A DNA stretch of 64,000 nt from an uncultured bacterium (GTDB lineage Bacteria; Bacillota; Clostridia; Lachnospirales; Lachnospiraceae), in contig CANRWP010000013.1 of assembly GCA_947643595.1 (NCBI GenBank), positions 263 to 64,262 of the forward strand. The letters are read 5' to 3'. Made by a program: the position numbers and the translations under genes. Of the stretch, positions 1 to 15,558 are shown piece by piece. The notes under the pieces are model-generated. The model was not told the DNA's origin, did not search any database, and worked only from the letters and a program-made list of their open reading frames with translations. Every line of letters starts with the position of its first letter. Position 1 is the first letter of the stretch.

Positions 1-3000
1 GAACAGGATGCCGCTCTGGTTCTGGCTGTTATGCTCCTCAGCGTTGGTCGCATTGCCGTAGCCTGCGTCGTCGGTGCCTTCGCTCTTGCTGTTTTCCTTG
101 TTATTTCCATTTCCGTTGTTGCCGGAATTACCGTTTCCATTTCCGTTATTTCCGGAGTTTCCATTATTGCCGTTATTCCCGGAACTGCTGTTTCCGTTCC
201 CGTTATTCCCGCTCCCGGTGTTGTCCTTGTTGTTCCCATTGCCGTTGCCGGAATTGTCCTTCCAGTCCTCGTCGGTATGGAGGTTGTAGTTTAACTGGAA
301 GACACGGTTCCCGTCTCCGTCATAAGCCGCCGCCATTAAGAGCCTGTCCGCATCGTACACCGCCTGTAAGCGGTTCTCCACCGTGTAGTCGTAGTACGTC
401 TCTACTTTGTCCGTCCCGTACTCGCCGATCTCGGAGATCAGGTTGCCGTTATCGTCGTAGGTGTAATCAACGGTGGTATCCTTCTTCCCATCGAACAGCT
501 TCGCCGATACTAACTGGTTACTGTCATTATACTGATAAAATGCGCTCTCCGCAATGTCTGTCTTATTCGGATGTTTCGTGGTCTGGGTGCGTTTTACATA
601 GCTTAAGCGGTTCCCCACTTTGTCGTAGGTATAATCGTAGGTCGTGAGCCCGCTGTTCTCCTCCTGCTCCTTCGAGGATAAGAGCCTGCCGTTCTCATCG
701 TAGGTAAACTCCCTGTCCGTCTCCACGAGCTGGAAGTGGTATTCGCTGTCTTTGTCGTGCTTCCCGTTGTGCTTTGTGCCGTGGGGCATCTTGTCGTCGT
801 GCCTGCCGTCCTCATGGTGCCCGTTGTGCTTATCGTCCCAGGCGTAATCGTAGAGGCTCTCCACCGCTTTCTCTGTCGCGATATAGCCGTTATCGTCGTA
901 GGTGTAGTCGTACTGACTCACCACCCACCCGCACTCGTCGCAGGTGTTCTTCAGGCTGACGATCTGGTCCCTGGCATTGTAGGTGTTGTAGGTGCTGATG
1001 CCGTTCGGTCTGTGGATCTCCGTCACGCGGTTGATCGCGTCGTAAACATAGGTAGTGGTCTTCCCGTTCCGGTCCGTCACCGCCGTCAGGTTGTCGTTCT
1101 TGTCGTAAGCATAGCTTACCCTTGTGCCATCCGCGTAGACGATTGCTGCAAGCTGGTCACAGCCGTCGTATTCATAGCGGATGGTCTCCCCGTCTTCTTT
1201 ATCCGCGGTGTCCGCTCCCGCCTCCGCTGGTTTCCGGTAAGTGGTGACGCTGGTGATCCGCCCCAACCCGTCGTAGGTGTAGACAGAATCCCCGCTGGTG
1301 TCCATCATGCTGGTCCTCTGCCCAAGCAGGTCATAGCCGTAGAGCACGCCCGAAGGGTTCCCTTCGGAGACGGTATTGCCGATACTCTCCTGCACATCCC
1401 CGTTTTCATCCCGATAGGTTTTCTCCACCAGGTCATTCAGTGCATCGTAATCGTAGCGGATAGAATTCCCGCCGTTCATCGTATAAGAGGTCCGCCTGCT
1501 CCCCGTATCGTAGGTGAGTTTCTCCGTCCTGCCGGAGGCGTCTGTGATGCTTGTCAGGTTCTGCTCTAAATCGTAGGTATAGACTGTCTTCCTGCCCATC
1601 GCGTCGGTGACGCTGGTCAGGTTCCTCATGCTGTCATAGGTGTATTTCGTTTTCTCCCCCATGGGAGCCTGCACATAGATCAGGTTCCCGAGGATATCGT
1701 AGCCGTAGTTTGTCTTTTCTCCGCCGGTGGCAGTCTTACTGGTCAGGTTGTTGTGGTTCCCCCAGGTATAGTGCTCCGTCAGCTTCATCCGGTCGGTGAA
1801 AGCCGTCAGCCTGCTCCCCGCGTCGTATACATATTTCTCCGTCTCCGACAGGGGGTTCTTTGTCCCGATGAGCCTGTCGTCTTTGTCGTAGCTCCTCTCA
1901 TAGAGATAGCCCTTCGGATCGGTGATGCCGGTCAGGTTATAGTTGTTATCGTAAGCGTAGCCCGTGATCCGCTCGCCCGGTCTGCCTACGGAGGTGATAT
2001 GCCCCTCTTTGTCATAGCCTACCGCCATGATTTTTCCTTCCGGATCGGTGGCGGATACCAGGTCGTCGATCAAGTTCCACGCGTACTGCGTTGTGTAGCC
2101 CAAAGCATCCGTATAGCCGGAAAGGTTGCCGCGGATATCGTAAGTGTAAGTTCCCACGCCGCCCAGCGCATTCTCCGCCGTCAGCACCCGGTGCATGATG
2201 TCGTAGCTGTAGCTTTCTTTCCTGCCGAGATTATCGGCGCTCTTTACGATATTGCCCCTCGTGTCGTAGGTGAAGGTTTTCTCCAGTCCCAAAGGCGTGG
2301 TGATGCCGGTCAGGCGGTGCACTTTGTCGTAGCTGTAAGCATAGACGCCGCCGTCCGGGTTGGTCAGGCTCTTCACCAGGCCGTTCAAATCTACTTCGTA
2401 TGCCGTGGTATTTCCTTTCGCATCCGTCTTTCCGGTCACGATATCATGTTTATCATAAGTGTAGGAGGTCTCCGCCTCCAGCGGAGAAACTTCCTTCACA
2501 AGGTTGTCCATCAGGTCGTAGCTGTAGGAAGTCGTGAGCCCGTTGGGATCGGTGACGCTGCGCATCCGCCCCGCCTTGTCGTAGGTGTAGCTCTCTTTGT
2601 TCCCTTCCGGCGTGGTGATAGAAAGTACCCTGTCCATGGCGTCGTAAAGATAGGACGTCTCCCCGCCGTTGCCGTCTCTGTAAGCTACGGGCCTCTGCAA
2701 AGCATCGTAAACATACCCCGTCACGACGCCGTTGCCGTCGGTCTTTTCCGTTAAACTGCTGTCCTTATTGTAGGCGTAGAGGGTTTCCGCCCCCAGGGGG
2801 TTCACTTTCTTCGCCAAGCGGTTCAGCTTGTCATACACGTACTGGTATACTGCGTCCCCGGGTTCCGTCGTTTTGACCAGGTTCCCCGCGCCGTCGTATT
2901 CGTATGTGGTGCTCTTTTCCTCCGCATCCAAGATACCCACAAGGTCATTCCTTGCGTTGTAGCTGTAGGACGTCACCGCCGTGTCGATGCCGGTGCTCTT

Positions 3001-6000
3001 GACGATCCTGCCGAACATATCGTATTCATAGGCGGCAGTCCTGCCGATGGTATCCTTCTGCTCTGTCAGAGAGCCCCTCTCATCGTAGGCATACGCCATC
3101 TCATTGTCCGCGTTGTCGAAGGCTTTTACTACCCTGCCCATCGCGTCATAGAGGTAATAAGTGGTGAGCCCTGCGCGGTCCCTGCTGCATACCAGCCGCC
3201 CTAAGCTGTCATAGCGGAAGTATTCTTCGTCGCCGTTGGGACAGGTGACCTTTAAAAGGTTCCCCGCCGCGTCGAACGCCTGCTCCGTTGTCCTGCCCAG
3301 CACGTCCGTGGAGGAGGTAAGCTGCCCCAAAGCGTTGTAGCGGTAGGTGGTCAGCCCCTGCCCGGCGTCGGTCATCTGGGTGATCTGCCCCAGGCTGTCA
3401 TAGACAAACTTCGTCTCGCCGCCCAGAGCGTCCACCGCCTTTGTCAGTTCGCCGATGGCGTCATATTCATAAGTTGTTACGGCACCTTCCGGATCGGTGA
3501 CGGTCAGGAGGTTTCCGTTTTTGTCATAAGTGTAGCTGGTCTTTCCTTCCAAAGCGTCCAGTATCGTGATAAGCCGGTCCGCTTTATCGTAACCATAAAC
3601 GGTGGTGTTTCCATTCTGGTCCGTGGCGGCGGAGAGGTTCCCCGCGCCGTCGTAGCCGTAGGAGAAGGTATACCCTAACGGATCAGTCTCCCCAGTTAAG
3701 AGGTTCCTGCCGTTATAGCTGTAGGTATACTTCCTGCTCTCGTCGTCCCAGAGGGCGGAGAGGTTTCCCGCGCCGTCGTAGGAGAGGGTTGTTACAAGCC
3801 CCTTCTGGTCTGTCTGGGAGGAGAGCCTTCCTGCACCATCGTAAGCATAGGAAACTGTAGTATGATCCGCGTAGGTGACGCCTGCTACCCTGCCGTCCTT
3901 ATCGTACCGGTAGGCGGTGGCGTTCCCCTTGGCGTCCGTCCTTGTGAGGGCTTTGTCCAGCACCGTGTCGAACGCATACTGCGTTTTGGAGCCCCTCTTA
4001 TCGGTATAGCCCGTCAGGTTCCCCTTGGCGTCATACTCATAGCTCTGTACGTTGCCCATGGCATCCGTCTCTTTTACCAGGCGGTCCCTGCTGTCATACT
4101 CGTAGGTGGTGGTATTCCCCTGGGCGTCCGTTTCTGTCAGGATGTTATAGTTTCCGTCGTAGGTGTAAGTGAGGGTATTGCCCAGGGCGTCTTTGCCGTT
4201 TATCAGGTTGTAGGCGCTGTCGTAGGTAAATACCGCCGTGTTTCCGTTTTTGTCCGTGATGGCGGTGACATTCCCCGCCTGGTCGAAGGTATAAATTTCC
4301 TTCCCGCCTTCGCCGTCGGTTTCGCTGATGTTCCAGCCGCGCTTATTATAAGTATATCTCTTCACATGCCCCAGCGCGTCGGTCTCCGACAGCGTCCGGT
4401 TCATGGCGTCGTAGGCGTAGGCTGTGCTGTGGCCGTCTCCATCGGTAACCGAAGCAGGCACCGCCTCTGTCCCCTGATAATGGTAGGTTGTCGTATTGCC
4501 GTTCCCGTCGGTCAGGGATGTGCGGCGGTTTATCTCATCGTAAGTGCAGGTAACGCTCCTGCCGCTGCCGTCGGTCACCTTCACCGGATTTTCATGGGCA
4601 TCGTAAGTATACGCCGTCACATTCCCGGAGAAATTCGATTCCGTCAGGATCTGCCCGGCGCTGTCGTAGGAAAATGTCCTTGCCGCGCCGTCAGCCCTCG
4701 TCTCTTTTACGACGCGCCCTTTGGCGTCGTTTTCATAGCGGGTGGTGTTCCCCGCTTCATCCGTCTTTTCCGATAAGAAGCCCCTCCCGTCGTAGGCAAA
4801 GCGCTCCGTCCTGCCGTCCGGGTATTCCACCTTCGTGGTCCGCATCATATCGTCGTAGGTATACACTGTGACGTTCCCGTTGTTGTCCGTCGTGGTCGTC
4901 GTATTGCCGCTGTAGGAGAGCTTCGCCAGGTTTCCGTTGGCGTCCTTCTGGCTCGTCACCCTTCCCTTTTCGTCATAGGCATTCTCCACAACGGTAGTGC
5001 CGTTCTCGTCCTGCCAGGATGTCATATGGTGGTTACTGTCGTACTGGTAGCTTCGATAAGTGCCGTCGCCATAGGTAACTTTCACCAGGTCGTCATTGTC
5101 ATCGTATGTATAAGTGACCTTATTTCCGTCCGGCAGCGTGATCTCCTCGATCCGCTGGTCCTCGTCCATCCGGACGGAGAAAGTTTTCCCGGAAGGGGTG
5201 ACGATGGCGCAGAGATAGAAATCCGTATCGTACACTAACTCCGTCACGTTTCCATGGATATCTGTAATAGTTTTTAAGAGCCCGAATACGTCAAAGCCGT
5301 GGGTGACTCCCGACGGATCGGTCACAAGCCAGCCGTCCTCCGTCTGCTCTAAGGTATAGTCGTAGCCCTCCGGGGCTTTCCAGTCCCCGGTTTCTCCTTC
5401 GGGTTCGTCTGCATCTGTCCCGGCGCTGTCTTCTGTATCTCCTTCCTGTCCGTTTTCCTCCCCGGCGCTCCTCTCACTCACGAATGCCGCCGTGCCCCCT
5501 TCAAAGGGGAGCACCATGCCGTCCGCCGCGAAATATAATACCCTGCCGTCCTCGAGGAAGGAAAGGTTCTCGCTGTAAGGGGATGCCCAGCCCATGCCGA
5601 ACATGTTGCCGTAGTAAGCTCCCACAGAGCTGTAGTTCCTCTCTAAGGAGAAAGTCCCGCCGATGTCCGTCAGCGAAGCGTCCTCCTGCGTCATGTAAAA
5701 GCTTCCCGTGTTCAGATTCACCGGTTCAAAACCGTACATGCAGTGCAGCGCCCTGCCCCGCAGCAGCCCGTCGATCAGCGCCTGCAGGTTATAATCGATC
5801 TCTAAGTTGCTGTATGGCTCCGCTGTCTGCGGGTTCCGGATAAAGATTCTCTCCCCCTGAACGCAGAGCATGTCCGGCATATCGTTATCTTTTAAGATCG
5901 TATTGATATCCACCCCGTAGTGGTCCGCGATCCGGGGCAGCACATCGATCAGTTTTTCCTCATAGATCAGGAAGGTGTCGCTCGTCTTGACGTCGCTTTC

Positions 6001-8118
6001 CGCGGGAGCTCCCGTTAAGAGGTCCTTCCCTTTCGCCGTCGCCTCCACATGGTAGATCACATCGGTCTGCAGTTCCCCGGTATCCCCCTGCCAGTTGGAG
6101 CGTTTCTTCTTGTTCTCCCTCGCCAGCGGGTACTCCGCCCGGTAGAGGTCCGAATCCGGGTACAGCAGGGCGGAGGCCGCCGGTACGGTCTTTCCGCTGC
6201 CGCCTTCCACTAAAGTATAAGTAACCTCAGACTCCGCCTGGGATAAGCCGTTCGCCAGCACGGACAGGGTGGTGCTCCCGCCGAAGATGCTGTCCGCCAG
6301 GATCGGCTCCACATCCACCGTCAGGTCGTTGATATCCAGATTTGCAAGATCCACCAGTGCCCCGGTCCATGAGACCACGAGTTTCGGCCCGTAGGAGGCG
6401 GAGCTCCTGTTATAGAATACCTCGCACTGCATCTTCCCGGCGTCGGAGCTGCCGGATTTTTCCGTCTCCGCCTTCATCACAAAGCCGTAGTTCGGCGTCC
6501 ATCCGTTTATCCAGCCGGACACCGCGTCGGTCACATCGTAGATGATGCTCTGCCCGCGGCTCACGGAAGGCTTCGCGTCCACAAAGCTCCTGCCTAAAGA
6601 GAGCTGGGAGTTCCAGGTTAACCGCCCCGGCGTCCAGGCGTCCGTCACCTGATAGAGCCCGAACTGAGAGTTTCCTTTGCTCCACCCTGTCTTCTGGGTG
6701 ACTGAAAGCCCCGCGCTTGTGATCTCCGCCTCCGCCATCAGGGCGGAGAAGTCGTAGTTTATCATCATATAGGTCCGGCAGTTCAAATGCCTGCTGCCGA
6801 AACCCTTGTAGTTGCCCGATACCACGCCGTCGTCATAGCCCACGTAGGGGTACTGGTTATCCCCGATCACCGACCGGGGCGAACCCTCCTCCGCACAGGC
6901 GAGGGAAAAGGCGGATGGCCCCACATTTACCGCCGTGGGATCGATCCGAACCGGATATGCCCTGCTTTCATCCGAGAGCCATTCTTTGTCCGCCTCCACG
7001 CTGATCCGGTAAGTATCTTCTTCCGTCTCCTCCAATGATAATTTCACCGCGAAGGACACATCCCCCGCCGCGTCCACCATCTCCGGCGCTTCCAGGAAGT
7101 ACGCCGGCTCTTCCTTATTATCCTCATATAAAATAACCTGGTTCTCCGAAAGCTCCGCCTCCAGCCCGTCCGTGTAGAGCAGGTAGGAGAAGGTGTTTTT
7201 ATCATTCTTTTCCAGTAAGACGATATCCTCCTTCAGGCTGTCCCCCAGTACCGTGTACTGGTAGTCCACCCCGGGGAAGACGTCGCTGTAGCGGATGGCG
7301 TTGTCCTCCGCCATGCTTCTTGTAAAGTCCCCCTCCTCCGGCACAAGCTCTAACGTATGCCCGGAGGCGTCGATGTAGATTCCTTCCTGATCCGAGAGCT
7401 CCTCCGGCAGGGACACCTGCATGGCGCCGCTGCCGTTTTCGTACCGCACGCTCCCCAGGGCGTACCTTGCCATCGCCCCTGTCGATAAGGTGTTATCCGT
7501 CTCCTGAAGCTCCCCCTCTTCATCTATGTAATAGGAGGCGGAGGGGCCGATCACGGTCACGTAGGAGGCTTTTCCTTCTTCCTCTGTTTCCGCTCCTGCC
7601 GCCGCGGGCGCTTCCCCTGTCAGGTAGGTCCTGCTGTAGGCGTCGTATGCCACCAGCTCCCCGTAATCTTCCTCATCCCCCTCCGGGTAGTAGTTTTCCG
7701 GCTCCCGGAGCACGGGATCGTTGCCGGAAACGTCCTCAGGGACGTCGTTGCCGGAGACGTCGGCGTCTGCATCTGTCTCTTCGGCGCCATCGGTTTCTGT
7801 CCCGGTTTCCTCTTTATCTGATCCGCTGTCTGTCTCCGTATCTGCGCCCTCTTTGTCCGCATCCGTATCCTGATCAGCGCCTTCCGGGCCCGCATCCGTA
7901 TTCGTGTCGGTTCCTTTCTCATCGTCCTCTCCGGCAGTATCGGCATCCTTTTTGCCGCTGTCCTCTCCGGCGGTGTCTGTATCTTCCTGCACGCTTTTCA
8001 CTGTTTCTGTGCTTTTTTCATCCGCGCGCACTGTCATCGCCGCACCGTCCTGCAGCACCATGATGAACGCCAGCAGAAAACTCAGTATTCTTGCCTGCCA
8101 CCTTTGTTTTTTAAACAT
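1..8118 (-). CDS. Giant secreted RHS/YD-repeat protein (signal peptide, acidic linker, DNRLRE-like domain, LysM-like motif, DUF6531-like domain, YD repeats); 3' end runs off the window
   Basis: ATG at 8118 after GAGGAGG. Sampled segments translate in one frame: MFKKQRWQARILSFLLAFIMVL (signal), ...AYPVRIDPT, LPRIADHYGVDINTILKDN (LysM-like), EPVNLNTGSFY (DUF6531-like), many YD/YxYD repeats. The ORF track lists nothing in this frame, consistent with no stop inside the window. Confidence 0.9.
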   Translation of the reverse strand, partial: MFKKQRWQARILSFLLAFIMVLQDGAAMTVRADEKSTETVKSVQEDTDTAGEDSGKKDADTAGEDDEKGTDTNTDAGPEGADQDTDADKEGADTETDSGSDKEETGTETDGAEETDADADVSGNDVPEDVSGNDPVLREPENYYPEGDEEDYGELVAYDAYSRTYLTGEAPAAAGAETEEEGKASYVTVIGPSASYYIDEEGELQETDNTLSTGAMARYALGSVRYENGSGAMQVSLPEELSDQEGIYIDASGHTLELVPEEGDFTRSMAEDNAIRYSDVFPGVDYQYTVLGDSLKEDIVLLEKNDKNTFSYLLYTDGLEAELSENQVILYEDNKEEPAYFLEAPEMVDAAGDVSFAVKLSLEETEEDTYRISVEADKEWLSDESRAYPVRIDPTAVNVGPSAFSLACAEEGSPRSVIGDNQYPYVGYDDGVVSGNYKGFGSRHLNCRTYMMINYDFSALMAEAEITSAGLSVTQKTGWSKGNSQFGLYQVTDAWTPGRLTWNSQLSLGRSFVDAKPSVSRGQSIIYDVTDAVSGWINGWTPNYGFVMKAETEKSGSSDAGKMQCEVFYNRSSASYGPKLVVSWTGALVDLANLDINDLTVDVEPILADSIFGGSTTLSVLANGLSQAESEVTYTLVEGGSGKTVPAASALLYPDSDLYRAEYPLARENKKKRSNWQGDTGELQTDVIYHVEATAKGKDLLTGAPAESDVKTSDTFLIYEEKLIDVLPRIADHYGVDINTILKDNDMPDMLCVQGERIFIRNPQTAEPYSNLEIDYNLQALIDGLLRGRALHCMYGFEPVNLNTGSFYMTQEDASLTDIGGTFSLERNYSSVGAYYGNMFGMGWASPYSENLSFLEDGRVLYFAADGMVLPFEGGTAAFVSERSAGEENGQEGDTEDSAGTDADEPEGETGDWKAPEGYDYTLEQTEDGWLVTDPSGVTHGFDVFGLLKTITDIHGNVTELVYDTDFYLCAIVTPSGKTFSVRMDEDQRIEEITLPDGNKVTYTYDDNDDLVKVTYGDGTYRSYQYDSNHHMTSWQDENGTTVVENAYDEKGRVTSQKDANGNLAKLSYSGNTTTTTDNNGNVTVYTYDDMMRTTKVEYPDGRTERFAYDGRGFLSEKTDEAGNTTRYENDAKGRVVKETRADGAARTFSYDSAGQILTESNFSGNVTAYTYDAHENPVKVTDGSGRSVTCTYDEINRRTSLTDGNGNTTTYHYQGTEAVPASVTDGDGHSTAYAYDAMNRTLSETDALGHVKRYTYNKRGWNISETDGEGGKEIYTFDQAGNVTAITDKNGNTAVFTYDSAYNLINGKDALGNTLTYTYDGNYNILTETDAQGNTTTYEYDSRDRLVKETDAMGNVQSYEYDAKGNLTGYTDKRGSKTQYAFDTVLDKALTRTDAKGNATAYRYDKDGRVAGVTYADHTTVSYAYDGAGRLSSQTDQKGLVTTLSYDGAGNLSALWDDESRKYTYSYNGRNLLTGETDPLGYTFSYGYDGAGNLSAATDQNGNTTVYGYDKADRLITILDALEGKTSYTYDKNGNLLTVTDPEGAVTTYEYDAIGELTKAVDALGGETKFVYDSLGQITQMTDAGQGLTTYRYNALGQLTSSTDVLGRTTEQAFDAAGNLLKVTCPNGDEEYFRYDSLGRLVCSRDRAGLTTYYLYDAMGRVVKAFDNADNEMAYAYDERGSLTEQKDTIGRTAAYEYDMFGRIVKSTGIDTAVTSYSYNARNDLVGILDAEEKSTTYEYDGAGNLVKTTEPGDAVYQYVYDKLNRLAKKVNPLGAETLYAYNKDSSLTEKTDGNGVVTGYVYDALQRPVAYRDGNGGETSYLYDAMDRVLSITTPEGNKESYTYDKAGRMRSVTDPNGLTTSYSYDLMDNLVKEVSPLEAETSYTYDKHDIVTGKTDAKGNTTAYEVDLNGLVKSLTNPDGGVYAYSYDKVHRLTGITTPLGLEKTFTYDTRGNIVKSADNLGRKESYSYDIMHRVLTAENALGGVGTYTYDIRGNLSGYTDALGYTTQYAWNLIDDLVSATDPEGKIMAVGYDKEGHITSVGRPGERITGYAYDNNYNLTGITDPKGYLYERSYDKDDRLIGTKNPLSETEKYVYDAGSRLTAFTDRMKLTEHYTWGNHNNLTSKTATGGEKTNYGYDILGNLIYVQAPMGEKTKYTYDSMRNLTSVTDAMGRKTVYTYDLEQNLTSITDASGRTEKLTYDTGSRRTSYTMNGGNSIRYDYDALNDLVEKTYRDENGDVQESIGNTVSEGNPSGVLYGYDLLGQRTSMMDTSGDSVYTYDGLGRITSVTTYRKPAEAGADTADKEDGETIRYEYDGCDQLAAIVYADGTRVSYAYDKNDNLTAVTDRNGKTTTYVYDAINRVTEIHRPNGISTYNTYNARDQIVSLKNTCDECGWVVSQYDYTYDDNGYIATEKAVESLYDYAWDDKHNGHHEDGRHDDKMPHGTKHNGKHDKDSEYHFQLVETDREFTYDENGRLLSSKEQEENSGLTTYDYTYDKVGNRLSYVKRTQTTKHPNKTDIAESAFYQYNDSNQLVSAKLFDGKKDTTVDYTYDDNGNLISEIGEYGTDKVETYYDYTVENRLQAVYDADRLLMAAAYDGDGNRVFQLNYNLHTDEDWKDNSGNGNGNNKDNTGSGNNGNGNSSSGNNGNNGNSGNNGNGNGNSGNNGNGNNKENSKSEGTDDAGYGNATNAEEHNSQNQSGILF

Positions 8119-8176
8119 CTTTTCCTCCTCCTTCGTACACGGTTCCATTTATTTCAAAAATATTTCTTTAAAATTT

Positions 8177-8244
8177 ACGATAACAAATCGAAAAATTTTT
8201 TCAACATGTTGACCCTAAACGGTAAATGTTGACCGTAAATGGTT
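8177..8244 (-). promoter_or_regulatory. Putative LytTR-activated promoter of the RHS gene: tandem direct repeat plus extended -10
   Basis: Plus strand ATGTTGACCCTAAACGGT (8206) and ATGTTGACCGTAAATGGT (8226), period 20. Minus strand TGTTATCGT (8185-8177) resembles an extended -10. Confidence 0.7.
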
Positions 8245-8268
8245 GGTTTCCAAAGTTGGCAGGCCATC

Positions 8269-11187
8269 TCACCACAGTAAACTACTTTTAAAATACTTCC
8301 CGCACAGTGCAGTTCCCACTCCCGAAAATCCCGTCATCAACGCCGGATTATATTTCTCCCGTGCAGAAGCTTCCCCTCGTTCCAGTCGTTTCAATATCCG
8401 CTCCCCGAGTTCCCTGTACTCCTTCTCCAGTTCCGAATCCTCTTCCGACCGCAGATACTCTCCGAGCGCCAGATAGTTCCCCGCCAGCCCATGGCACAGA
8501 CAAAGCTCATCCTGCTCCATCTCCTCCAGAAAAATCTGTTTGCAGCGGTCTATATCACGTTTCACTGTCCCGGAATCATCCGGAAATCCGCACCGTTTCA
8601 ATCTCAATCTGGACAGCAGAATCCCTGCCGCTCCGTGGCACCACGCGTTGTTGCAAAACCGCTGTCCCTGAGGGTGCCGCAGATCCTTCCAGTTTCCGTT
8701 TTCATACAGACTGTCCTCATGCGCTAACAGCTCTTTGATTCTTTCTACATATCGCATATCCTCTGTCAGTTCAAGAAGACAGCCAAACGCAAGTATCAAT
8801 CCGCTGTTTCCATGTGCTATCCCGGCAAGCGGCTCCACCCCTTCCAACAGGCGCCATCCTCTTCCGACTTCCATGGCATCACAGCGCTCCCAGATCCCTT
8901 CCCCCATCCGCACCGCCGTTTCCAGATAGCGTTTCTCCCCGGATACCCTGAAAAGTTTCGCAAATACCGTCGCTGCCCCGGCAAGCCCGGAAAGGTAATC
9001 CATGGACGTTTCTGTCTCCCACATGCTTTCTACGATCTCCCCGTGCCGCTTTGCCCAAGCCAGAAACCGCTCTTCTCCGGTGACCTCATAGAGCAGCAGG
9101 TAGGTAAAAACAACCGAGCCCTCTCCGACAAAAGCGCCCGTATGCCCGGACGCTCTGCTCTGCGCCCCCGTTGCCGTTTCTTCCGTGTAACGGAATAATT
9201 TATTGACAGACAGCTCATAAATACGGCGGTATCTCCCGGATGGATATTTCTGCATCACTGCAGCCAGAAATACCGCTATGCCGCCGATTCCTTCATACAG
9301 GTATATCCCGGACGGAGCAATCCGGAAATTTCCACCCTCTTCCACCTGCGGGCCGTAAAATCCCACGTCTCCATTGTCAGTTGGAAGCGCCATATCACAC
9401 ACCTGATTGGCTATCCTTCGGACCTGCCTCTCTATCCGCTCTTCCCTGACTTTGCCGTCGCATACAGCATCAGAAACGTCCTCTTTCCTGCGGACAAACT
9501 TTCTTTTCTCCAGTATTCCGAGGGACAATGCGATCAGGGAAAGCTGCCTTTTCAGATCATCTTCCCCGAAACCCTTCTGCATTTTCTTCCATCTGCGAAA
9601 ATCTCCTTCCTGACAAAATGCAGGGATATCCATCTGATACAGAGCATCCCTCTCCTGCCTTGCCAGCTCCTCGTCTTTCTGGTTCTTATCCAGAACATGC
9701 AGAAACAATCTGCGCCTTCCGCCGTCTTCCAGAAATTCCGGATAAAACGAGGTCTGCAGATACATCTGATATTGTTGCGTATGGCGGATCAGGTATCTGC
9801 TTCCGCCGGAAAACAGAAGTCTGCATTTCCCTGTGATCTGCTCCTTTTCCTGCTGAAAATACCTGTAGGCACACTCAAATCCCTGACAGATCTCCTCCGC
9901 ATAAGCTGACGGATCCGCCCTCTTTCCCTGATAAACCGGCAGGCTTCCCGAAAATTCTGCCTCTCCCTGTTCATAGCCTATATGGATATCCGAACTTTCG
10001 GGCTTCCTGATCTTCGGAATGCGGAACGGTGTTTTTACCTTCTCCCCTCTGCCCAGTGCATTTAGAATGATACCTTTCCCGTCGCCTCCCCAGATAATGA
10101 CAGGCAGTATCCCGACGCTCAATACGGAATGTTTCAGTTCTTCAATGACCATCCGGTTCGCGTTTTCACGGACTGCATAATCAGGATTTCCCGGCAGGGT
10201 TTCCAGATCGACAGGGATCGGATATTCCCCTGCGGCAATGATATTTTCTCCGTGCATGTCGCTCATACCCATCAGCCGGCACAGGAAAAGCAGAATTCCC
10301 ATTCTCTGAAAATATCTTTTTACTTCCGCTTCGCTCTTACAGGAACGCTGTTCTATATAAGACTCCAGACTGTAATCCTTCTTTGCCAGAATCCGGACGC
10401 TCTGGAAAGAAAGACCGGCATTGCTGCAAAACTGTCCGTACAGTTCCATAAAACGCTGATCCTTTTCCAGACTCCGCTGCTTATAGATGAGGACCTCCTG
10501 ATTATCCGGATACACCTTTGCCACGGTCTGCCCGCCATGATGTGCGTCGGAAAGTCCGCATTCTATACTCTTTATCCTTTTGAAGGAATTCTCAGGGAAA
10601 AACAGTTTATTTATATTTTCCATATTTTTAGATATTTCTGATGCGATCTGCCTGATCTGTCTCGTCACGGTTACGATCCGGCATAACAGTAAACGTTTCA
10701 TCTCGGGATACCGATTACATAGCCCCCGGATGTAAGCCCGGTTATTTAAAAACCGTTCCTGATAGTCTCTGTACTCTTCTTCCGGATCTGCCCCCAGCAG
10801 TATGCCTCTTTCTCTGCAGGAATGTATATCCTGAATCAATGCCCGCATGGGTATCCATGCCACAGATGAGTAAAAATTGGAGAGAATTATATTTCTGAAA
10901 TTATCCTCATTGATTATCTCAGATTCTTCGGCATAAGTTACCGCAAGCCTGCCAAAAAAGCGATAGAAATTCCCGAAAGTTCCTTTCGAAAAATACTCCT
11001 CCCACCCTTTTTCCTCCTCGAACAGTTCATCGCAGAGAACGCTCAGTACAAAAACTTCTTCTTCAAAAGGATCAGAATATGTTTCCTCCTCGCAGGCATC
11101 TTCCCTTATGATTTTCTCGCACACTTCCTTTCCCAGAACTGCTTCCCAGTATTCCCTGTTCTTTTGTATTTCCCTTTTATAATCCAT
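8269..11187 (-). CDS. lanM: Class II lanthipeptide synthetase LanM
   Basis: Dehydratase motifs SDAHHGG, IYKQRS, DMHGEN, VDLET, RHTQQY. Cyclase motifs GIAHG, AWCHGAAG, LCHGLAG with the Zn ligands present. Confidence 0.95.
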   Translation of the reverse strand: MDYKREIQKNREYWEAVLGKEVCEKIIREDACEEETYSDPFEEEVFVLSVLCDELFEEEKGWEEYFSKGTFGNFYRFFGRLAVTYAEESEIINEDNFRNIILSNFYSSVAWIPMRALIQDIHSCRERGILLGADPEEEYRDYQERFLNNRAYIRGLCNRYPEMKRLLLCRIVTVTRQIRQIASEISKNMENINKLFFPENSFKRIKSIECGLSDAHHGGQTVAKVYPDNQEVLIYKQRSLEKDQRFMELYGQFCSNAGLSFQSVRILAKKDYSLESYIEQRSCKSEAEVKRYFQRMGILLFLCRLMGMSDMHGENIIAAGEYPIPVDLETLPGNPDYAVRENANRMVIEELKHSVLSVGILPVIIWGGDGKGIILNALGRGEKVKTPFRIPKIRKPESSDIHIGYEQGEAEFSGSLPVYQGKRADPSAYAEEICQGFECAYRYFQQEKEQITGKCRLLFSGGSRYLIRHTQQYQMYLQTSFYPEFLEDGGRRRLFLHVLDKNQKDEELARQERDALYQMDIPAFCQEGDFRRWKKMQKGFGEDDLKRQLSLIALSLGILEKRKFVRRKEDVSDAVCDGKVREERIERQVRRIANQVCDMALPTDNGDVGFYGPQVEEGGNFRIAPSGIYLYEGIGGIAVFLAAVMQKYPSGRYRRIYELSVNKLFRYTEETATGAQSRASGHTGAFVGEGSVVFTYLLLYEVTGEERFLAWAKRHGEIVESMWETETSMDYLSGLAGAATVFAKLFRVSGEKRYLETAVRMGEGIWERCDAMEVGRGWRLLEGVEPLAGIAHGNSGLILAFGCLLELTEDMRYVERIKELLAHEDSLYENGNWKDLRHPQGQRFCNNAWCHGAAGILLSRLRLKRCGFPDDSGTVKRDIDRCKQIFLEEMEQDELCLCHGLAGNYLALGEYLRSEEDSELEKEYRELGERILKRLERGEASAREKYNPALMTGFSGVGTALCGKYFKSSLLW

Positions 11188-11216
11188 TGTACCCCCTGCA
11201 AGTGAATAAACCTCCG

Positions 11217-11285
11217 AAAAATGATATGCCCCTTATCGGAACAGATTTTTATTTTCTTAAAATCCGCTTCGTAAGGAGCATACCA
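11217..11285 (-). terminator. Long stem-loop between lanA and lanM (attenuator or mRNA stabiliser)
   Basis: Minus strand TGGTATGCTCCTTA-CGAAGCGGATTTT pairs with AAAATCTGTTCCG-A-TAAGGGGCATATCA and is followed by a T run. Confidence 0.65.
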
Positions 11286-11318
11286 CAATCTTTAATTCCC
11301 TGCTGTAACGCTTTAAGA

Positions 11319-11459
11319 TCAGCAGCAGATAACGCTGAACAGCCCGCCAAAATCGACTGTAACCGAATAAGTGCCATTGTCTTCAACTGACATATTTACC
11401 TTTTCTGCTTCTTCCAGTTCCAACAATAAATTTTTTTCTGCTCTTAATTCAGTATTCAT
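11319..11459 (-). CDS. lanA: Lanthipeptide precursor, 46 aa: MNTELRAEKNLLLELEEAEKVNMSVEDNGTYSVTVDFGGLFSVICC
   Basis: Translated by hand. RBS GGAGG, ATG overlaps the kinase stop (ATGA), acidic leader, Ser/Thr-rich core ending in CC, directly upstream of lanM. Confidence 0.88.
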   Translation of the reverse strand: MNTELRAEKNLLLELEEAEKVNMSVEDNGTYSVTVDFGGLFSVICC

Positions 11460-12775
11460 TCCTTTTCCTCCTTCGCAATAAAGGCAAAGAGTTTTGCCTC
11501 AAAATGTTCTCCATCGTAATGAAATTCGATGTCTCCGTCATATTTTTTCAAGATGCGCCTTACCAGTTCCACCCCCATTCCATGTGCATTTTTATCTGCC
11601 TTGTCCGTTAAAAACTTCTGTCCTTTCATCACCGGACTTTTGGAACTGCTGTTTGCCAGTTTTAACATAAATCTATATCTGGCATTCCAGATCCGCAGAT
11701 ATATCTCCCGTCTCCCGGGTTCACATTTTTCGCACGCCTCGATCGCATTATCCAAAAGATTTCCCAGTAAAATCCCAAGCTCCGCCTCCTCAAAAGGATA
11801 TTCGTACACATCCAGTTCCAGCCGGAATCTGATCTCCTTTTGATCCATCACCTGTTTTTTATAATTTATGATAAAATCCAAAAATGGGAGGCCCGTCCAT
11901 ACCCGGCTTCTTTCCTCATTCAGCACTCCAAGATATTTACCAAGAAATTCTTTCGCTTCTTTATATCTTTTTTCCTCTATACAGCAGTACAGGTGTTCCA
12001 TAGTATGGCAGTATTCATGCAGATGCTCCACGCTTTTCTTATACAACTCATGGATCTCCGCAGTCTGCTCCTGCAGCAGACTCTGTGAAATATCCAGATT
12101 ATTTTTGTCTGTCTGTATTTTATTATAAGCGGTCCGCAGCAACACACAAAGAAGGGATACAGAAATACAAAAAATCAACAGTATATTCAGAACAAAATCA
12201 ACTGTCTGGAAGCCCTGCTTCCCGAGCCACATGTTATAGCTCAATAGAATCCATTGGATTCCCGTTACCGCAAATACCGCTCTGATGCGCTCCGCCAATA
12301 GTAAATGTATAAGCTTCTCATAATTCTCAGAAACCTTCTTCTTTCTTATCAGCAGTAGTATTCCGGTTACCACCATAATATACCAGCAGCATTCCAGAAC
12401 CGTACGGTTCCCTCTGTTTACGCTAATTAAAGCCTTCCCAAACCACATTCCCTCCAAAATCAGAACCGGCAGCTTCAAAAATGAAATGCTGGTCAGATAT
12501 AGTGCCACCAGTAAAAAAATATGACCGGTTTTTACTTCAAAAAAGCACTTATATATCAGGGAAAATATTATGGCAATTACTAAAATTGCTATATTGGAAA
12601 TATAAGAGTCCCAGGTACTCCAAATATATAATATACAAAGAACAGCACATCCAACCGCCCAAACACCCTTCAGCCATCTGCTGTCCTTTCTGAACTCAGG
12701 ATACAGGCTATATATGATCCATATCCCCTGCAGCATTTCTATTACCTGAATCAAAACATAACACTCCTGCAGCAT
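11456..12775 (-). CDS. Multi-TM GHKL sensor histidine kinase (AgrC/VirS-like)
   Basis: Hydrophobic N-terminal half, HEYCH H-box, GNLLDNAIEA N-box, HGMG G-box. Start chosen at the ATG after GGAGG. Confidence 0.9.
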   Translation of the reverse strand: MLQECYVLIQVIEMLQGIWIIYSLYPEFRKDSRWLKGVWAVGCAVLCILYIWSTWDSYISNIAILVIAIIFSLIYKCFFEVKTGHIFLLVALYLTSISFLKLPVLILEGMWFGKALISVNRGNRTVLECCWYIMVVTGILLLIRKKKVSENYEKLIHLLLAERIRAVFAVTGIQWILLSYNMWLGKQGFQTVDFVLNILLIFCISVSLLCVLLRTAYNKIQTDKNNLDISQSLLQEQTAEIHELYKKSVEHLHEYCHTMEHLYCCIEEKRYKEAKEFLGKYLGVLNEERSRVWTGLPFLDFIINYKKQVMDQKEIRFRLELDVYEYPFEEAELGILLGNLLDNAIEACEKCEPGRREIYLRIWNARYRFMLKLANSSSKSPVMKGQKFLTDKADKNAHGMGVELVRRILKKYDGDIEFHYDGEHFEAKLFAFIAKEEKE

Positions 12776-12776
12776 T

Positions 12777-13490
12777 TTATCCTCCATTGTCCATAATTGC
12801 ATCCCGCACATGGTTCCATTTCGACCTGCTGACCGGAAGAGTTTCCCCATTTCCGATATGTACCATATTGTCTTTCAAAGATGTTACATGGTCCATATTT
12901 ACAGCAAAGCCGCGCTCAATCACCATAAATTCTTCACCCCGAAGTTTTTCTACCAATTCCGTCAAAGACATCCTGACCGGTGTCTCTCCATCTTTATGTA
13001 CGATAACTACATATTTTTTGTCTTTTTTCAGGTAATAAATATCCCGATAAAATATCTTCCTCTTTTCCCCATAGTGCTCCACCATATAAAACCGTTCATA
13101 CTTTCTTCTCTTCCTGAGTGCCTCCTCCATCGTCAGATATGCCTGGGGAAGTTTTTCTTCCAGCTCTGTCTTCCAAATATAGCGGTAGGCATTTACCTCA
13201 TAACCATCTATGGCACACTCTCTAAAATGGCTGACATAGATCAGAATCGGCTCCGAAAATACCCTGCGGATCTGCTTTGCCACCTCCAATCCGTCCATCT
13301 CCGGCAGTTTCATATCAAGAAGATAGAGATCAAAATATCTGCCTCTCTTCAAATCCGCTAAAATATCCTTTCCACTTTTATAAACACATATTTCATAGTC
13401 CATGCTCATCCGGTCCATACATTTTTCTGTGATCTTACAGATTCGGTCAATATATATGTCCTCATCATCCAGCACTGCAATGTTTAACAT
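12777..13490 (-). CDS. LytTR-family response regulator (AgrA-like)
   Basis: Receiver motifs IAVLDD and LLDMKLP. LytTR C-terminus FMVIERGFAVN...LPVSRSK. Confidence 0.93.
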   Translation of the reverse strand: MLNIAVLDDEDIYIDRICKITEKCMDRMSMDYEICVYKSGKDILADLKRGRYFDLYLLDMKLPEMDGLEVAKQIRRVFSEPILIYVSHFRECAIDGYEVNAYRYIWKTELEEKLPQAYLTMEEALRKRRKYERFYMVEHYGEKRKIFYRDIYYLKKDKKYVVIVHKDGETPVRMSLTELVEKLRGEEFMVIERGFAVNMDHVTSLKDNMVHIGNGETLPVSRSKWNHVRDAIMDNGG

Positions 13491-13510
13491 TTTTCACCTT
13501 CCTCTTTATT

Positions 13511-14080
13511 TTAATCTTTAAATGTATAAATGCGGAACTGTTTTAAATCAAAAAAATAACTCTCCTCCCTGTTGATAACAAGTTTATAAACGTCATTCTC
13601 TAACATTTCCGGATAGCGATCGCCACTCCTGTTCCTTTCATAACAGTAATAATACTGCCCTTCTCTGTGGTTTACCAGTTTATCTATGATATCATCAACC
13701 ACCTCTGATTTTTTCATCGGATTCTTTCTGCTCGGCATCCATTTACCGATCAGTCCCTGTATGCCATACCGGCTTATCTTCATCCGTTTTGCCATCGGGG
13801 CACAGCTTTCCAGCAATTCTTCCATACTCGTACCCGCCAGTGCGCAGATGTCGTTGTATAATGCAATATCCGCCTCCCTTACCAGCCCCATCTTGATTAC
13901 TGCGCAGATCTGCAGGAGCGCCAGCTCAAGAAATTCCTCATCTTCCTCCTGACTGTACCACTTTTTTAACCAGTTCAGATTTTTACGCACATTCTCCCTG
14001 ACCGGCAGCCCCCGGCGGTTTAAAACCTCCAGCATATATACCATGGAAAGTACGGATTTTTCTTCTATTTTCTTCTTCAT
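13511..14080 (-). CDS. Hypothetical soluble protein, first gene of the LytTR/HK/lan operon
   Basis: ORF with GGAGG before the ATG at 14080. No motif recognised. Confidence 0.75.
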   Translation of the reverse strand: MKKKIEEKSVLSMVYMLEVLNRRGLPVRENVRKNLNWLKKWYSQEEDEEFLELALLQICAVIKMGLVREADIALYNDICALAGTSMEELLESCAPMAKRMKISRYGIQGLIGKWMPSRKNPMKKSEVVDDIIDKLVNHREGQYYYCYERNRSGDRYPEMLENDVYKLVINREESYFFDLKQFRIYTFKD

Positions 14081-14163
14081 CTTCGGCCCTCCAATACACC
14101 GCACTTTTATAAATGTTGTAAGCATATTGTTAAGTTCTATATCTCGCATTCCGGATTGGATTT

Positions 14164-14232
14164 ATTATAGCATAATTTCGGATGAATAAAATATTTTGAC
14201 CCTTAACAGTCAAAAGTTGACCTTAAATCGTT
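14164..14232 (-). promoter_or_regulatory. Putative LytTR autoregulated promoter: tandem repeat plus TGnTATAAT
   Basis: TTGACCCTTAACAGT (14196) and TTGACCTTAAATCGT (14217), period 21. Minus strand TGCTATAAT at 14172-14164. Confidence 0.75.
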
Positions 14233-14254
14233 ATTGCATCTAATCCATTTAATT

Positions 14255-14297
14255 AAAAAATGAGAATATCAGCCTATTCAGCTGATACTCTCATTTT
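14255..14297 (-). terminator. Rho-independent terminator of spoVT
   Basis: AAAATGAGAATATCAGC / GCTGATACTCTCATTTT inverted repeat with a T tail on the minus strand. Confidence 0.8.
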
Positions 14298-14299
14298 GC

Positions 14300-14845
14300 T
14301 CACTGTTCCATCTGCCTGCCCAGAAACCCGGCAGCCGACAGAATCAACTTCTGTTCCACCTCACCCATCTTTCCTTTTTCTGCATTGTTCAACAGGATGA
14401 CCGCCCCTATCACATCTCCCTCGCTGATGATCGGGCTGATCGCCTCCTGCCGGAACTCCTCCGAATTGTCCTGCGTCACCGGGATAAAATCCCGCTCCCC
14501 CTTGATGCTGACCACGCTCTCTCTGTTATTCACCTTGCTCTCCAGCTCTCTGCTGACATACTTCCCGACGGAATTTTTCATGCCGCCCGCCGCCGCAATG
14601 ATCTGATCCCTGTCCGCGATCATCGCCACATGGCCGGAGACCTGAGCCAGGCTCTCCGCGTACTGCTTTGCAAAAGTGGACATCTCGCCGATCGGGGAAT
14701 ATTTTTTCAGGATGATCTCCCCCTCCCTGTCCGTAAAAATTTCCAACGGATCGGACTCCCTGATCCGAAGCGTCCTCCGGATCTCCTTCGGGATTACCAC
14801 CCTGCCCAAATCATCTATTCTTCGCACAATTCCTGTTGCTTTCAT
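14300..14845 (-). CDS. spoVT: Stage V sporulation protein T
   Basis: MKATGIVRRIDDLGRVVIPKEIRR AbrB domain plus C-terminal GAF-like domain ending FLGRQME. Confidence 0.97.
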   Translation of the reverse strand: MKATGIVRRIDDLGRVVIPKEIRRTLRIRESDPLEIFTDREGEIILKKYSPIGEMSTFAKQYAESLAQVSGHVAMIADRDQIIAAAGGMKNSVGKYVSRELESKVNNRESVVSIKGERDFIPVTQDNSEEFRQEAISPIISEGDVIGAVILLNNAEKGKMGEVEQKLILSAAGFLGRQMEQ

Positions 14846-14937
14846 AGTTAAAGTTCCTCCATTTACAGTTTTTTCTAACGTTTCCATTTTAGTATCTGTA
14901 AAGGGAGGAACTTCTATACAAGCCTGAAAAACATTTT

Positions 14938-15558
14938 CTACCGCACTTCCATCTCAAAATCCGACGCCCCGTGCTTGCACAGCGGACAGACAAAGTCTGC
15001 GGGCAGATCTTCGCCCTCGTACACATAGCCGCAGATCTTGCACACCCAGACTTTCTTTCCCTCTTTCTCCTTCGGCGCCTGCGGTTTCGGTTTGATATTG
15101 TCCTGATAGTAGGTGTAGGTGACGGACGCCGCCTCGGAGAGCAGCTCCGCCGCCGTCACATCGGCGATAAACTGCGTGTGAGTCCCCAGATCGATCTCCT
15201 GCACCACTTTCCCGGAGAGATAGGAGTTCGTCCCCTTCGTGATATAGTACAGTCCGTTCTCACTGCGCTCCTTCGGACCGTAGTCCTCAAACTTGTCCAC
15301 ATTTTTTCCGCTCTGGAAGCCGAAATGCTTAAACGTATCGAAGGAGGCATCCTCCGCCAATACCGACACATTGAACATCCCTGTCGCCTTCACCATATCG
15401 TGCGTCTTATTCTGCTTATTCACCGTGATGGATATCCGGTTCGGCGTGCTCGTCACCTGCATCACCGTATTGATAATACAGCCGTTATCGAACCCATTCT
15501 CCTGCGCCGTCAAAACAAACAGCCCGTAGCTGAGCTTAAACATCGCTTTCTGATCCAT
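14938..15558 (-). CDS. Flavin reductase with C-terminal rubredoxin-like domain
   Basis: LSYGLFVLT...GTHTQF, then WVCKICGYVY...CPLCKHG. Confidence 0.9.
   Translation of the reverse strand: MDQKAMFKLSYGLFVLTAQENGFDNGCIINTVMQVTSTPNRISITVNKQNKTHDMVKATGMFNVSVLAEDASFDTFKHFGFQSGKNVDKFEDYGPKERSENGLYYITKGTNSYLSGKVVQEIDLGTHTQFIADVTAAELLSEAASVTYTYYQDNIKPKPQAPKEKEGKKVWVCKICGYVYEGEDLPADFVCPLCKHGASDFEMEVR

Follow-up and report, generated by a model that had tools for sequence, protein, structure and literature searches.

The 64,000-nucleotide stretch of DNA that we analyzed (the window; GenBank assembly GCA_947643595.1, contig CANRWP010000013.1, from an uncultured Lachnospiraceae bacterium) carries near one end a cassette of genes for an orphan protein, a response regulator, a histidine kinase, a lanthipeptide precursor (LanA) and a lanthipeptide synthetase (LanM), followed by a giant RHS gene. 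We think it probable that this cassette is an agr-like circuit in which a lanthipeptide serves as the signal and switches on a predicted RHS toxin. The observations beneath this reading are the layout of the genes, the intact enzyme residues, a tandem repeat (the box) with its spacing to the promoters, the exchange of lanA-lanM with agrBD in related loci, and the variation of the RHS tips. The features of the locus are as follows.

14195-14231, minus strand: box 1, two 16-nucleotide direct repeats with a period of 21, upstream of the operon.
14164-14172, minus strand: an extended -10 element, 25 nucleotides after box 1.
13511-14080, minus strand: the orphan gene, encoding 189 amino acids without a Pfam or NCBIfam family.
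12777-13490, minus strand: the response regulator gene (PF00072 and PF04397, receiver and LytTR).
11456-12775, minus strand: the gene for a membrane GHKL histidine kinase of the AgrC type (PF14501; 439 amino acids).
11319-11459, minus strand: lanA, the precursor gene (46 amino acids).
11219-11286, minus strand: a long stem-loop between lanA and lanM (z-score -5.5).
8269-11187, minus strand: lanM (TIGR03897, 618.5 bits against a cut-off of 304; 972 amino acids).
8208-8243, minus strand: box 2, two 16-nucleotide direct repeats with a period of 20, directly upstream of the RHS promoter.
8177-8204, minus strand: a sigma-70-type -35/-10 pair with TG, adjoining box 2.
1-8118, minus strand: the 5′ 2,706 codons of a WapA-like RHS gene (DNRLRE, DUF6531 and 43 RHS repeats).
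14257-14297, no strand: a stem-loop behind spoVT, with 17-base-pair arms (94% complementary) and a 7-nucleotide loop.

The original prediction, made from the letters of the window, had described a co-oriented series of genes, translational coupling of lanA to the kinase gene, and an interval between spoVT and the RHS gene free of LanT, LanP and LanFEG/LanI genes, and all of this held up: the orphan, regulator, kinase, lanA, lanM and RHS genes lie on the minus strand, the lanA start overlaps the kinase stop by ATGA, and no gene of those exporter, protease or immunity families lies in the interval. The stem-loop at 14257-14297 is likely a terminator that insulates the cassette. The RHS gene is truncated by the end of the contig, 262 bases beyond the window, in an assembly of 3,218,978 bases that is 87% complete. 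Because a 7,247-nucleotide contig from another study's run covers 7803-15049 with 4 differences, the layout is not an artefact of assembly. The sequencing runs that contain the stretch are mostly labelled mouse gut. Contigs from RNA libraries (two runs of one study) overlap parts of the orphan, regulator and lanA genes and the 5′ parts of lanM and the RHS gene, but we did not use them as support, because level and strand are unreadable and they may represent DNA.

The same tandem repeat had also been claimed before both the operon and the RHS gene, and we confirmed both copies, each of which ends 25 nucleotides ahead of a -10 element. A degenerate pattern matched only box 1 and box 2 in the 3,218,978 bases, and when the window's own half-sites were kept out of the training of a matrix, the two boxes ranked first and second in the genome (39.9 and 34.9), with the next site at 18.2. 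The promoter at 8177-8204 was one of 10 consensus sites and the only one with TG; because the total number of such sites was at chance level, we weighed it by its position. To place the repeat in a family, we collected related loci by LanM searches, which returned close copies at 61–84% identity and distant ones at ~25–36%; duplicates were removed (three same-genus matches duplicated L001, L003 and L004 and were counted once), leaving 23 loci with lanA-lanM (lan-type), 7 close and 16 distant. A matrix built from the close clade alone placed its best pair of half-sites 24–27 nucleotides from a -10 element in 11 of the 16 distant upstream regions, where 1.1 were expected. In agr, imperfect direct repeats immediately precede the -35 region of the operon that encodes the system (PMC5600425, in part), and the cassette likewise has direct repeats upstream of its own operon's -35 region. 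By eye, the promoter-proximal half-sites match the AgrA consensus given in the same source at 9/9 and 8/9 positions, with spacers of 11 and 12. We predict that box 1 is the regulator's binding site at its own operon.

That lanA-lanM occupies the slot of agrD-agrB, as had been proposed, was borne out by three genomes in which genes for AgrB (PF04647) and AgrD (TIGR04223, over cut-off) lie beside orphan, regulator and kinase genes of the same clade, together with the same repeat. The box, with a -10 element, stood directly upstream of agrB in all three of these agr-type loci and in none of four LanT-type control loci; the family matrix had been trained on 19 lan-type upstream boxes, with the agr-type loci outside the training set. 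The regulators of lan-type, agr-type and signal-less loci formed one group against six other LytTR regulators (support 94/98), and the kinases grouped in the same way, save for one long-branch exception. Among 401 sampled genomes of the family, the regulator-kinase-lanA-lanM cassette was present in 16 (the window's included) and the orphan gene in 19, comprising 13 lan-type loci, 3 agr-type loci, 1 signal-less case (a frameshifted orphan gene with a regulator and kinase only) and 2 remnants; the class sample added 398 other genomes, 12 of which belong to the family, and none of these had the orphan gene (two further genomes went unscored). Judged from these sequences, the orphan protein marks the sensing module. 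Because the orphan/regulator/kinase clade and the repeat are shared, we take agrBD and lanA-lanM to alternate, one sensing module apparently being fed by either pair. Regulator-kinase modules that have boxes and neither peptide nor agrBD genes occur at L083, L085, L091:8676-11472 (a second module there) and L137; possibly these listen to the signals of other strains.

The regulator and kinase are of the AgrA and AgrC types. Asp59 and Lys107 of the regulator are invariant, as are His253 and the N and G boxes of the kinase, which has five strong hydrophobic segments and a hydrophobic N-terminal half. Clustering at 50% identity divides the orphan protein into 391 clusters, and the protein's model (predicted local distance difference test score 87) has a helical N-terminal part and an alpha/beta C-terminal part. 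Foldseek searches with the whole model and with the C-terminal half gave no match at E 0.001, nor was there an Atlas match; the best VIA-align results were Z 8.1 (root-mean-square deviation 3.1, 78 residues aligned, generic helices) and Z 4.7 (2.3, 58 aligned). We therefore set aside the assignment of a function from structure, for which no solved structure gave a convincing match, and the absent matches do not establish a new fold.

LanA and LanM have the features of a class II precursor and enzyme. LanA, called as an identical protein on 78 contigs, has an acidic leader and a hydrophobic core with Ser, Thr and Cys residues that ends in Ser-Val-Ile-Cys-Cys; it has no match to the AgrD family TIGR04223. 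Across 22 precursors the only invariant residues are one Glu of the leader and the Cys-Cys at the end, and the precursors of the close clade, including that of the window, have two Cys only. Database variants in which the terminal Cys are altered or absent (P0321, P0323, P0380 and P0381) could be errors or muted alleles. All 14 catalytic positions in CylM numbering, Glu366 and the cyclase His among them, are kept in each of the 22 full-length LanMs, the window's included, even though these share only ~30% mutual identity; the split LanM of L053 was excluded from this set. In 13 of 17 homologous lanA-lanM spacers, whose sequences are unrelated, the z-score is likewise -2.9 or below, and the stem-loop likely raises the level of precursor mRNA over that of enzyme mRNA. 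For the kinase, elimination and zinc residues we followed the definitions made on CylM (PMC4550811, in part).

The RHS gene could be followed past the end of the contig with protein P0182, which has 0 mismatches to the window's RHS protein over 2,783 amino acids and a full length of 3,180; its tip matches the PF01909 nucleotidyltransferase family at residues 3072–3166 (E 9e-8). Among RHS alleles whose bodies are 86–99.5% identical there are at least four unrelated tips, including a phage-type lysozyme. The body has the DNRLRE, DUF6531 and YD-repeat architecture of WapA/Rhs proteins with an RHS core, and, as in those proteins, the tip varies among close alleles; the N terminus is basic, hydrophobic and Ala-ending (by eye only). 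We predict that the protein is a contact-dependent polymorphic toxin. Where a weapon or an adhesin had been suggested, the weapon is the better supported of the two because the tips are polymorphic.

The idea that RHS is the circuit's output stood for the close clade and failed beyond it. A second box follows lanM in 7/7 close loci. It precedes the RHS gene directly in four; in another a 5.5-kb insertion, which brings a third box, separates lanM from the RHS gene; in L004 the RHS gene comes after esaA-like, WXG100 and yukD-like genes; and in the last the contig ends, so RHS is present in 6/6 close loci with sequence. No RHS gene lies beside lanM in any of the 16 distant loci, within the DNA compared, which rules RHS out as a general output. 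The seven downstream boxes of distant cassettes precede a radical-SAM peptide cluster, genes for secreted proteins, an ABC-like gene and further regulators, and at an eighth distant locus a match to the simple pattern precedes a complete class I lantibiotic cluster. As read from the sequences, most outputs serve conflict or are secreted (RHS, class I lantibiotic and radical-SAM peptide clusters). A complete type VII system at L004 was considered and rejected, no EssC over cut-off being found in that genome. In the agr-type locus L081:5688-13092 a second box precedes a Cys-rich-peptide radical-SAM cluster (CcpM/TIGR04066-like, below cut-off).

The circuit would work as follows. LanM would dehydrate Ser and Thr residues of the LanA core and close no more than two thioether rings with the Cys-Cys end, among them a hydrophobic ring of five residues. 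Housekeeping proteins encoded elsewhere would trim and release the ringed peptide, which would then activate the AgrC-type kinase, phosphate passing from His253 to Asp59 of the regulator. Bound to box 1, the phosphorylated regulator would provide positive feedback, and bound to box 2 it would drive the RHS output. The RHS protein would leave by Sec and deliver its tip into neighbouring bacteria.

A number of results weigh against this circuit. The distal half-sites of the boxes match the AgrA consensus less well than the proximal ones (7/9 and 6/9, by eye), and the best-kept repeat positions (38, 38 and 37 of 38) sit just 3′ of that consensus. The bootstrap of 94 for the regulator clade is slightly below the usual threshold, and a held-out scan placed a downstream box in only 7 of the 16 distant cassettes. 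LanA cores are more conserved than sensors (41% against 20%), unlike strongly strain-specific signals, and covariation of core and sensor was not significant (partial Mantel r 0.11, p 0.09, 20 loci; with one close-clade member, r 0.135, p 0.12, 15 loci). In several copies the kinase gene or lanM is split, some output operons contain ABC transporters, and three of five genomes contain MutE-type immunity permeases over cut-off, far from the cassette.

Export and leader removal are the chief difficulty: they form a required step without a gene, because neither an exporter nor a leader peptidase was found and both LanT and AgrB are missing from the closed genome G118. The C39 peptidase PF03412 had no match in the window's assembly. 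Of 16 host genomes searched, 10 lacked a match (2 of them closed), 4 had weak matches in open reading frames (ORFs) of 259–435 amino acids and 2 had a full transporter elsewhere, so that a full LanT is absent from 14. AgrB (PF04647) was found neither in the cassette nor in the 87%-complete assembly, and was absent from four of six genomes searched. Nor did a matrix scan of the window's genome reveal a further strong box that could mark an exporter encoded in trans. Loose pattern scans of nine other genome handles (eight distinct) stayed at the control level; only two extra sites were convincing, of which the first precedes a second regulator-kinase pair and the other has no clear target. Because lanthipeptide proteases can be unclustered (PMC8960859, in part), trimming and export in trans would nevertheless be plausible.

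Unclustered proteases would also suit a second explanation, which we consider unlikely: that the peptide is a narrow-spectrum lantibiotic that induces itself in the manner of salivaricin A, with export and immunity encoded elsewhere and RHS merely co-regulated. Autoinduction of lantibiotics through a two-component system is established (PMC4162386, in part), the distant permeases and the transporters in output operons could supply immunity and export, and the LanMs of ordinary LanT clusters that are related to those of the cassette serve precursors of the plantaricin C family. This last relationship suggests that the cassette peptide descends from an antibiotic of that family. The leaders agree weakly: when 13 cassette precursors were scanned with E values up to 10 allowed, 3 showed likeness to NF000539 (E 0.008–0.25), and all cassette precursors score under its cut-off. 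The peptides themselves look little like typical antibiotics, however. With motif definitions taken from PMC11877530 and PMC13289728 (each in part), the mersacidin-type lipid II motif being Thr-x-Glu-Cys, the strict form Cys-Thr-x-Thr-x-Glu-Cys occurred in 0/22 precursors and a looser form in 2/22, leaving 20 cores, the window's among them, without it. A Gly-Gly/Ala/Ser site occurred in 3/22 (19 thus lack a double-Gly site), and the window's peptide has only its two Cys. The cassette has no LanT exporter, mostly no double-Gly site and no clustered LanFEG or LanI, the lack of a full LanT extends to 14 of the 16 host genomes, and neither the window's genome nor G003 has a MutE-type permease over cut-off. 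The copy at the head of a complete class I lantibiotic cluster, moreover, sits where a controller would.

An improbable alternative, in our estimate, is that the kinase reads some other cue (foreign peptides, contact or a host signal) and that LanA-LanM is either a further output or a modulator of the kinase that stays inside the cell or in the membrane and is never exported. This would dispense with the exporter and peptidase that we failed to find, and it would fit the hydrophobic core, the non-significant covariation of cores with sensors, the existence of the signal-less modules listed above, and the translational coupling of lanA to the kinase gene in the close clade. That coupling is not general, however, since distant copies have gaps between the two genes; the stem-loop after lanA points to an excess of precursor; and lanA-lanM occupies, under the same repeat, the slot that agrB-agrD holds in the sister loci.

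Very unlikely, finally, is a reading of the cassette as what is left of a decaying lantibiotic cluster on mobile elements, with the repeats serving an ordinary two-component system: split kinase or lanM genes (L001, L002, L040 and L053), conjugative-element genes beside several copies and orphan-only remnants would suit it, but LanMs so divergent would hardly all have kept their 14 catalytic residues, nor the precursors their terminal Cys-Cys, nor the spacers a stem-loop without sequence conservation.

Returning to the agr-like circuit, we compared it with known systems. Like agr, the cassette pairs a membrane GHKL kinase with a LytTR regulator, has repeats before its own operon and is predicted to make a small cyclic hydrophobic peptide, and its sister loci carry true agrBD. 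It differs from agr in that the cassette and assembly lack AgrB/AgrD, in the predicted closure of the ring by LanM as a thioether rather than a thiolactone, and in the addition of the orphan gene, an antisense Xre gene in 12/17 loci and a conserved 3′ extension of the repeat. Nisin is an auto-inducing lantibiotic, and such lantibiotics encode export and immunity and have an antibiotic as their peptide. The cassette lacks both gene sets, has mostly lost the lipid II motif, uses an AgrC/AgrA-type pair and has a separate system as its output. With salivaricin A (salAMTXYKR) and streptin it shares a lanthipeptide with a co-encoded two-component system, a class II enzyme and a Cys-Cys end (PMC4162386). 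The plantaricin C family (NF000539) resembles it in the related LanMs and weak leader similarity and differs from it in that the cassette mostly lacks the cleavage site and the lipid II motif and has no LanT or LanFEG.

In Clostridium acetobutylicum, the Agr effector CA_C0082 is LanM-like, and its lanM-like gene lies directly behind a LytTR/kinase pair (PMC10301443). As described in part of that source, the homologues of CA_C0082 have 670–728 amino acids, lack catalytic and zinc residues and a precursor, and follow a complete agrBD-agrCA. The cassette's LanM is unlike them, with its 972 amino acids, intact catalytic and zinc residues, a precursor and no agrBD, which rules out a pseudo-enzyme of this type. 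The RHS protein resembles WapA/Rhs of Bacillus subtilis and Streptococcus suis in its possibly signal-like N terminus, DNRLRE, DUF6531, YD repeats and variable tips (PMC12704120, in part), and S. suis proteins are among its homologues. Unlike those systems, it has no secF-like or srtB gene upstream, lies behind a LytTR-type box and has a predicted nucleotidyltransferase-like tip.

Together, these comparisons make it likely that the cassette is agr-like in its working without being a member of agr, and that it uses class II chemistry while lacking what lantibiotics have for export, immunity and target binding. A literature search, with most subscription journals and supplements outside its coverage, returned no report of this layout, and the portion of main text available from a survey of class II neighbourhoods (PMC12715929) mentions neither LytTR nor Lachnospiraceae. 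We accordingly favour the view that this agr-like circuit with a lanthipeptide signal is undescribed. A wider account is more tentative, somewhat less likely than not: that a dedicated family of lanthipeptide pheromones, derived from antibiotics like plantaricin C, replaced AgrB/AgrD before an AgrC/AgrA pair in gut Lachnospiraceae and reaches its receptor by a route without LanT or AgrB. In this account a novel protein family and an antisense Xre switch would tune the system, which would be a mobile unit controlling RHS toxins, type VII-like loci and further peptide antibiotics. If the circuit is real, it would add to peptide quorum sensing a chemistry absent from the literature searched, in which a lanthipeptide is kept as a signal alone and is interchangeable with the autoinducer of Agr. 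It would also show a route from antibiotic to pheromone, and abundant gut commensals would have a switch, set by density or kinship, for their contact-dependent toxins. Such loci would be classed by genome-mining tools as incomplete bacteriocin clusters.

Several observations concern the variation of the cassette. Twelve of 17 loci (L002, L004, L005, L039, L042, L044, L045, L047, L049, L050, L058 and L059) have an Xre-family gene (PF01381) in antisense orientation, placed between the promoter of box 1 and the orphan gene. Activation of the box promoter would transcribe across xre, which could thereby form an antisense switch. The window's copy is without xre: compared with L059:6630-7000, ~380 bases holding the gene are missing at 14090-14160. 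The orphan gene is split or truncated in L085 and L086, the kinase gene is split in L001, L002 and L040 and lanM in L053; because such copies occur, signal-deaf or signal-mute states may be common. ORFs resembling those of conjugative elements (helicase/methylase, relaxase-, VirD4- and ParA/B-like, by eye) flank L002, L005, L042, L058 and L059, and of 12 other genomes from the genus 3 had the cassette, a patchiness compatible with mobility. For two cassettes, identical proteins exist in database entries of the cultured species [Clostridium] scindens and [Clostridium] hylemonae.

Others concern the RHS genes and their surroundings. Shortly before the core, the window's RHS protein has an Asn/Gly-rich low-complexity insert (window 100-260) that varies between strains. 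Small ORFs follow the RHS gene in L004, L005 and L059, and the window's assembly ends before the DNA past the tip. The window's genome has two more RHS genes, G000:C76 and G000:C42, both without a box, the former contig also encoding small membrane proteins in an array and carrying the beginning of an EssC-like gene. The 5.5-kb insertion between lanM and the RHS gene, at L058:12999-18530 (also in L057) and with a box at each end, encodes a glycosyltransferase and a 1,122-amino-acid Mrr-nuclease/STAND NTPase protein and had no PADLOC match. The 20 ORFs scanned in the rest of the window (14900-64000), among which LanT and LanFEG were absent, are all housekeeping genes and include a flavin reductase-rubredoxin, thymidine kinase, a VTC/DUF4956 pair, mfd, pth, a glgC-like pair, a Mur ligase, pyruvate formate lyase, mecA, dnaB and gdpP.

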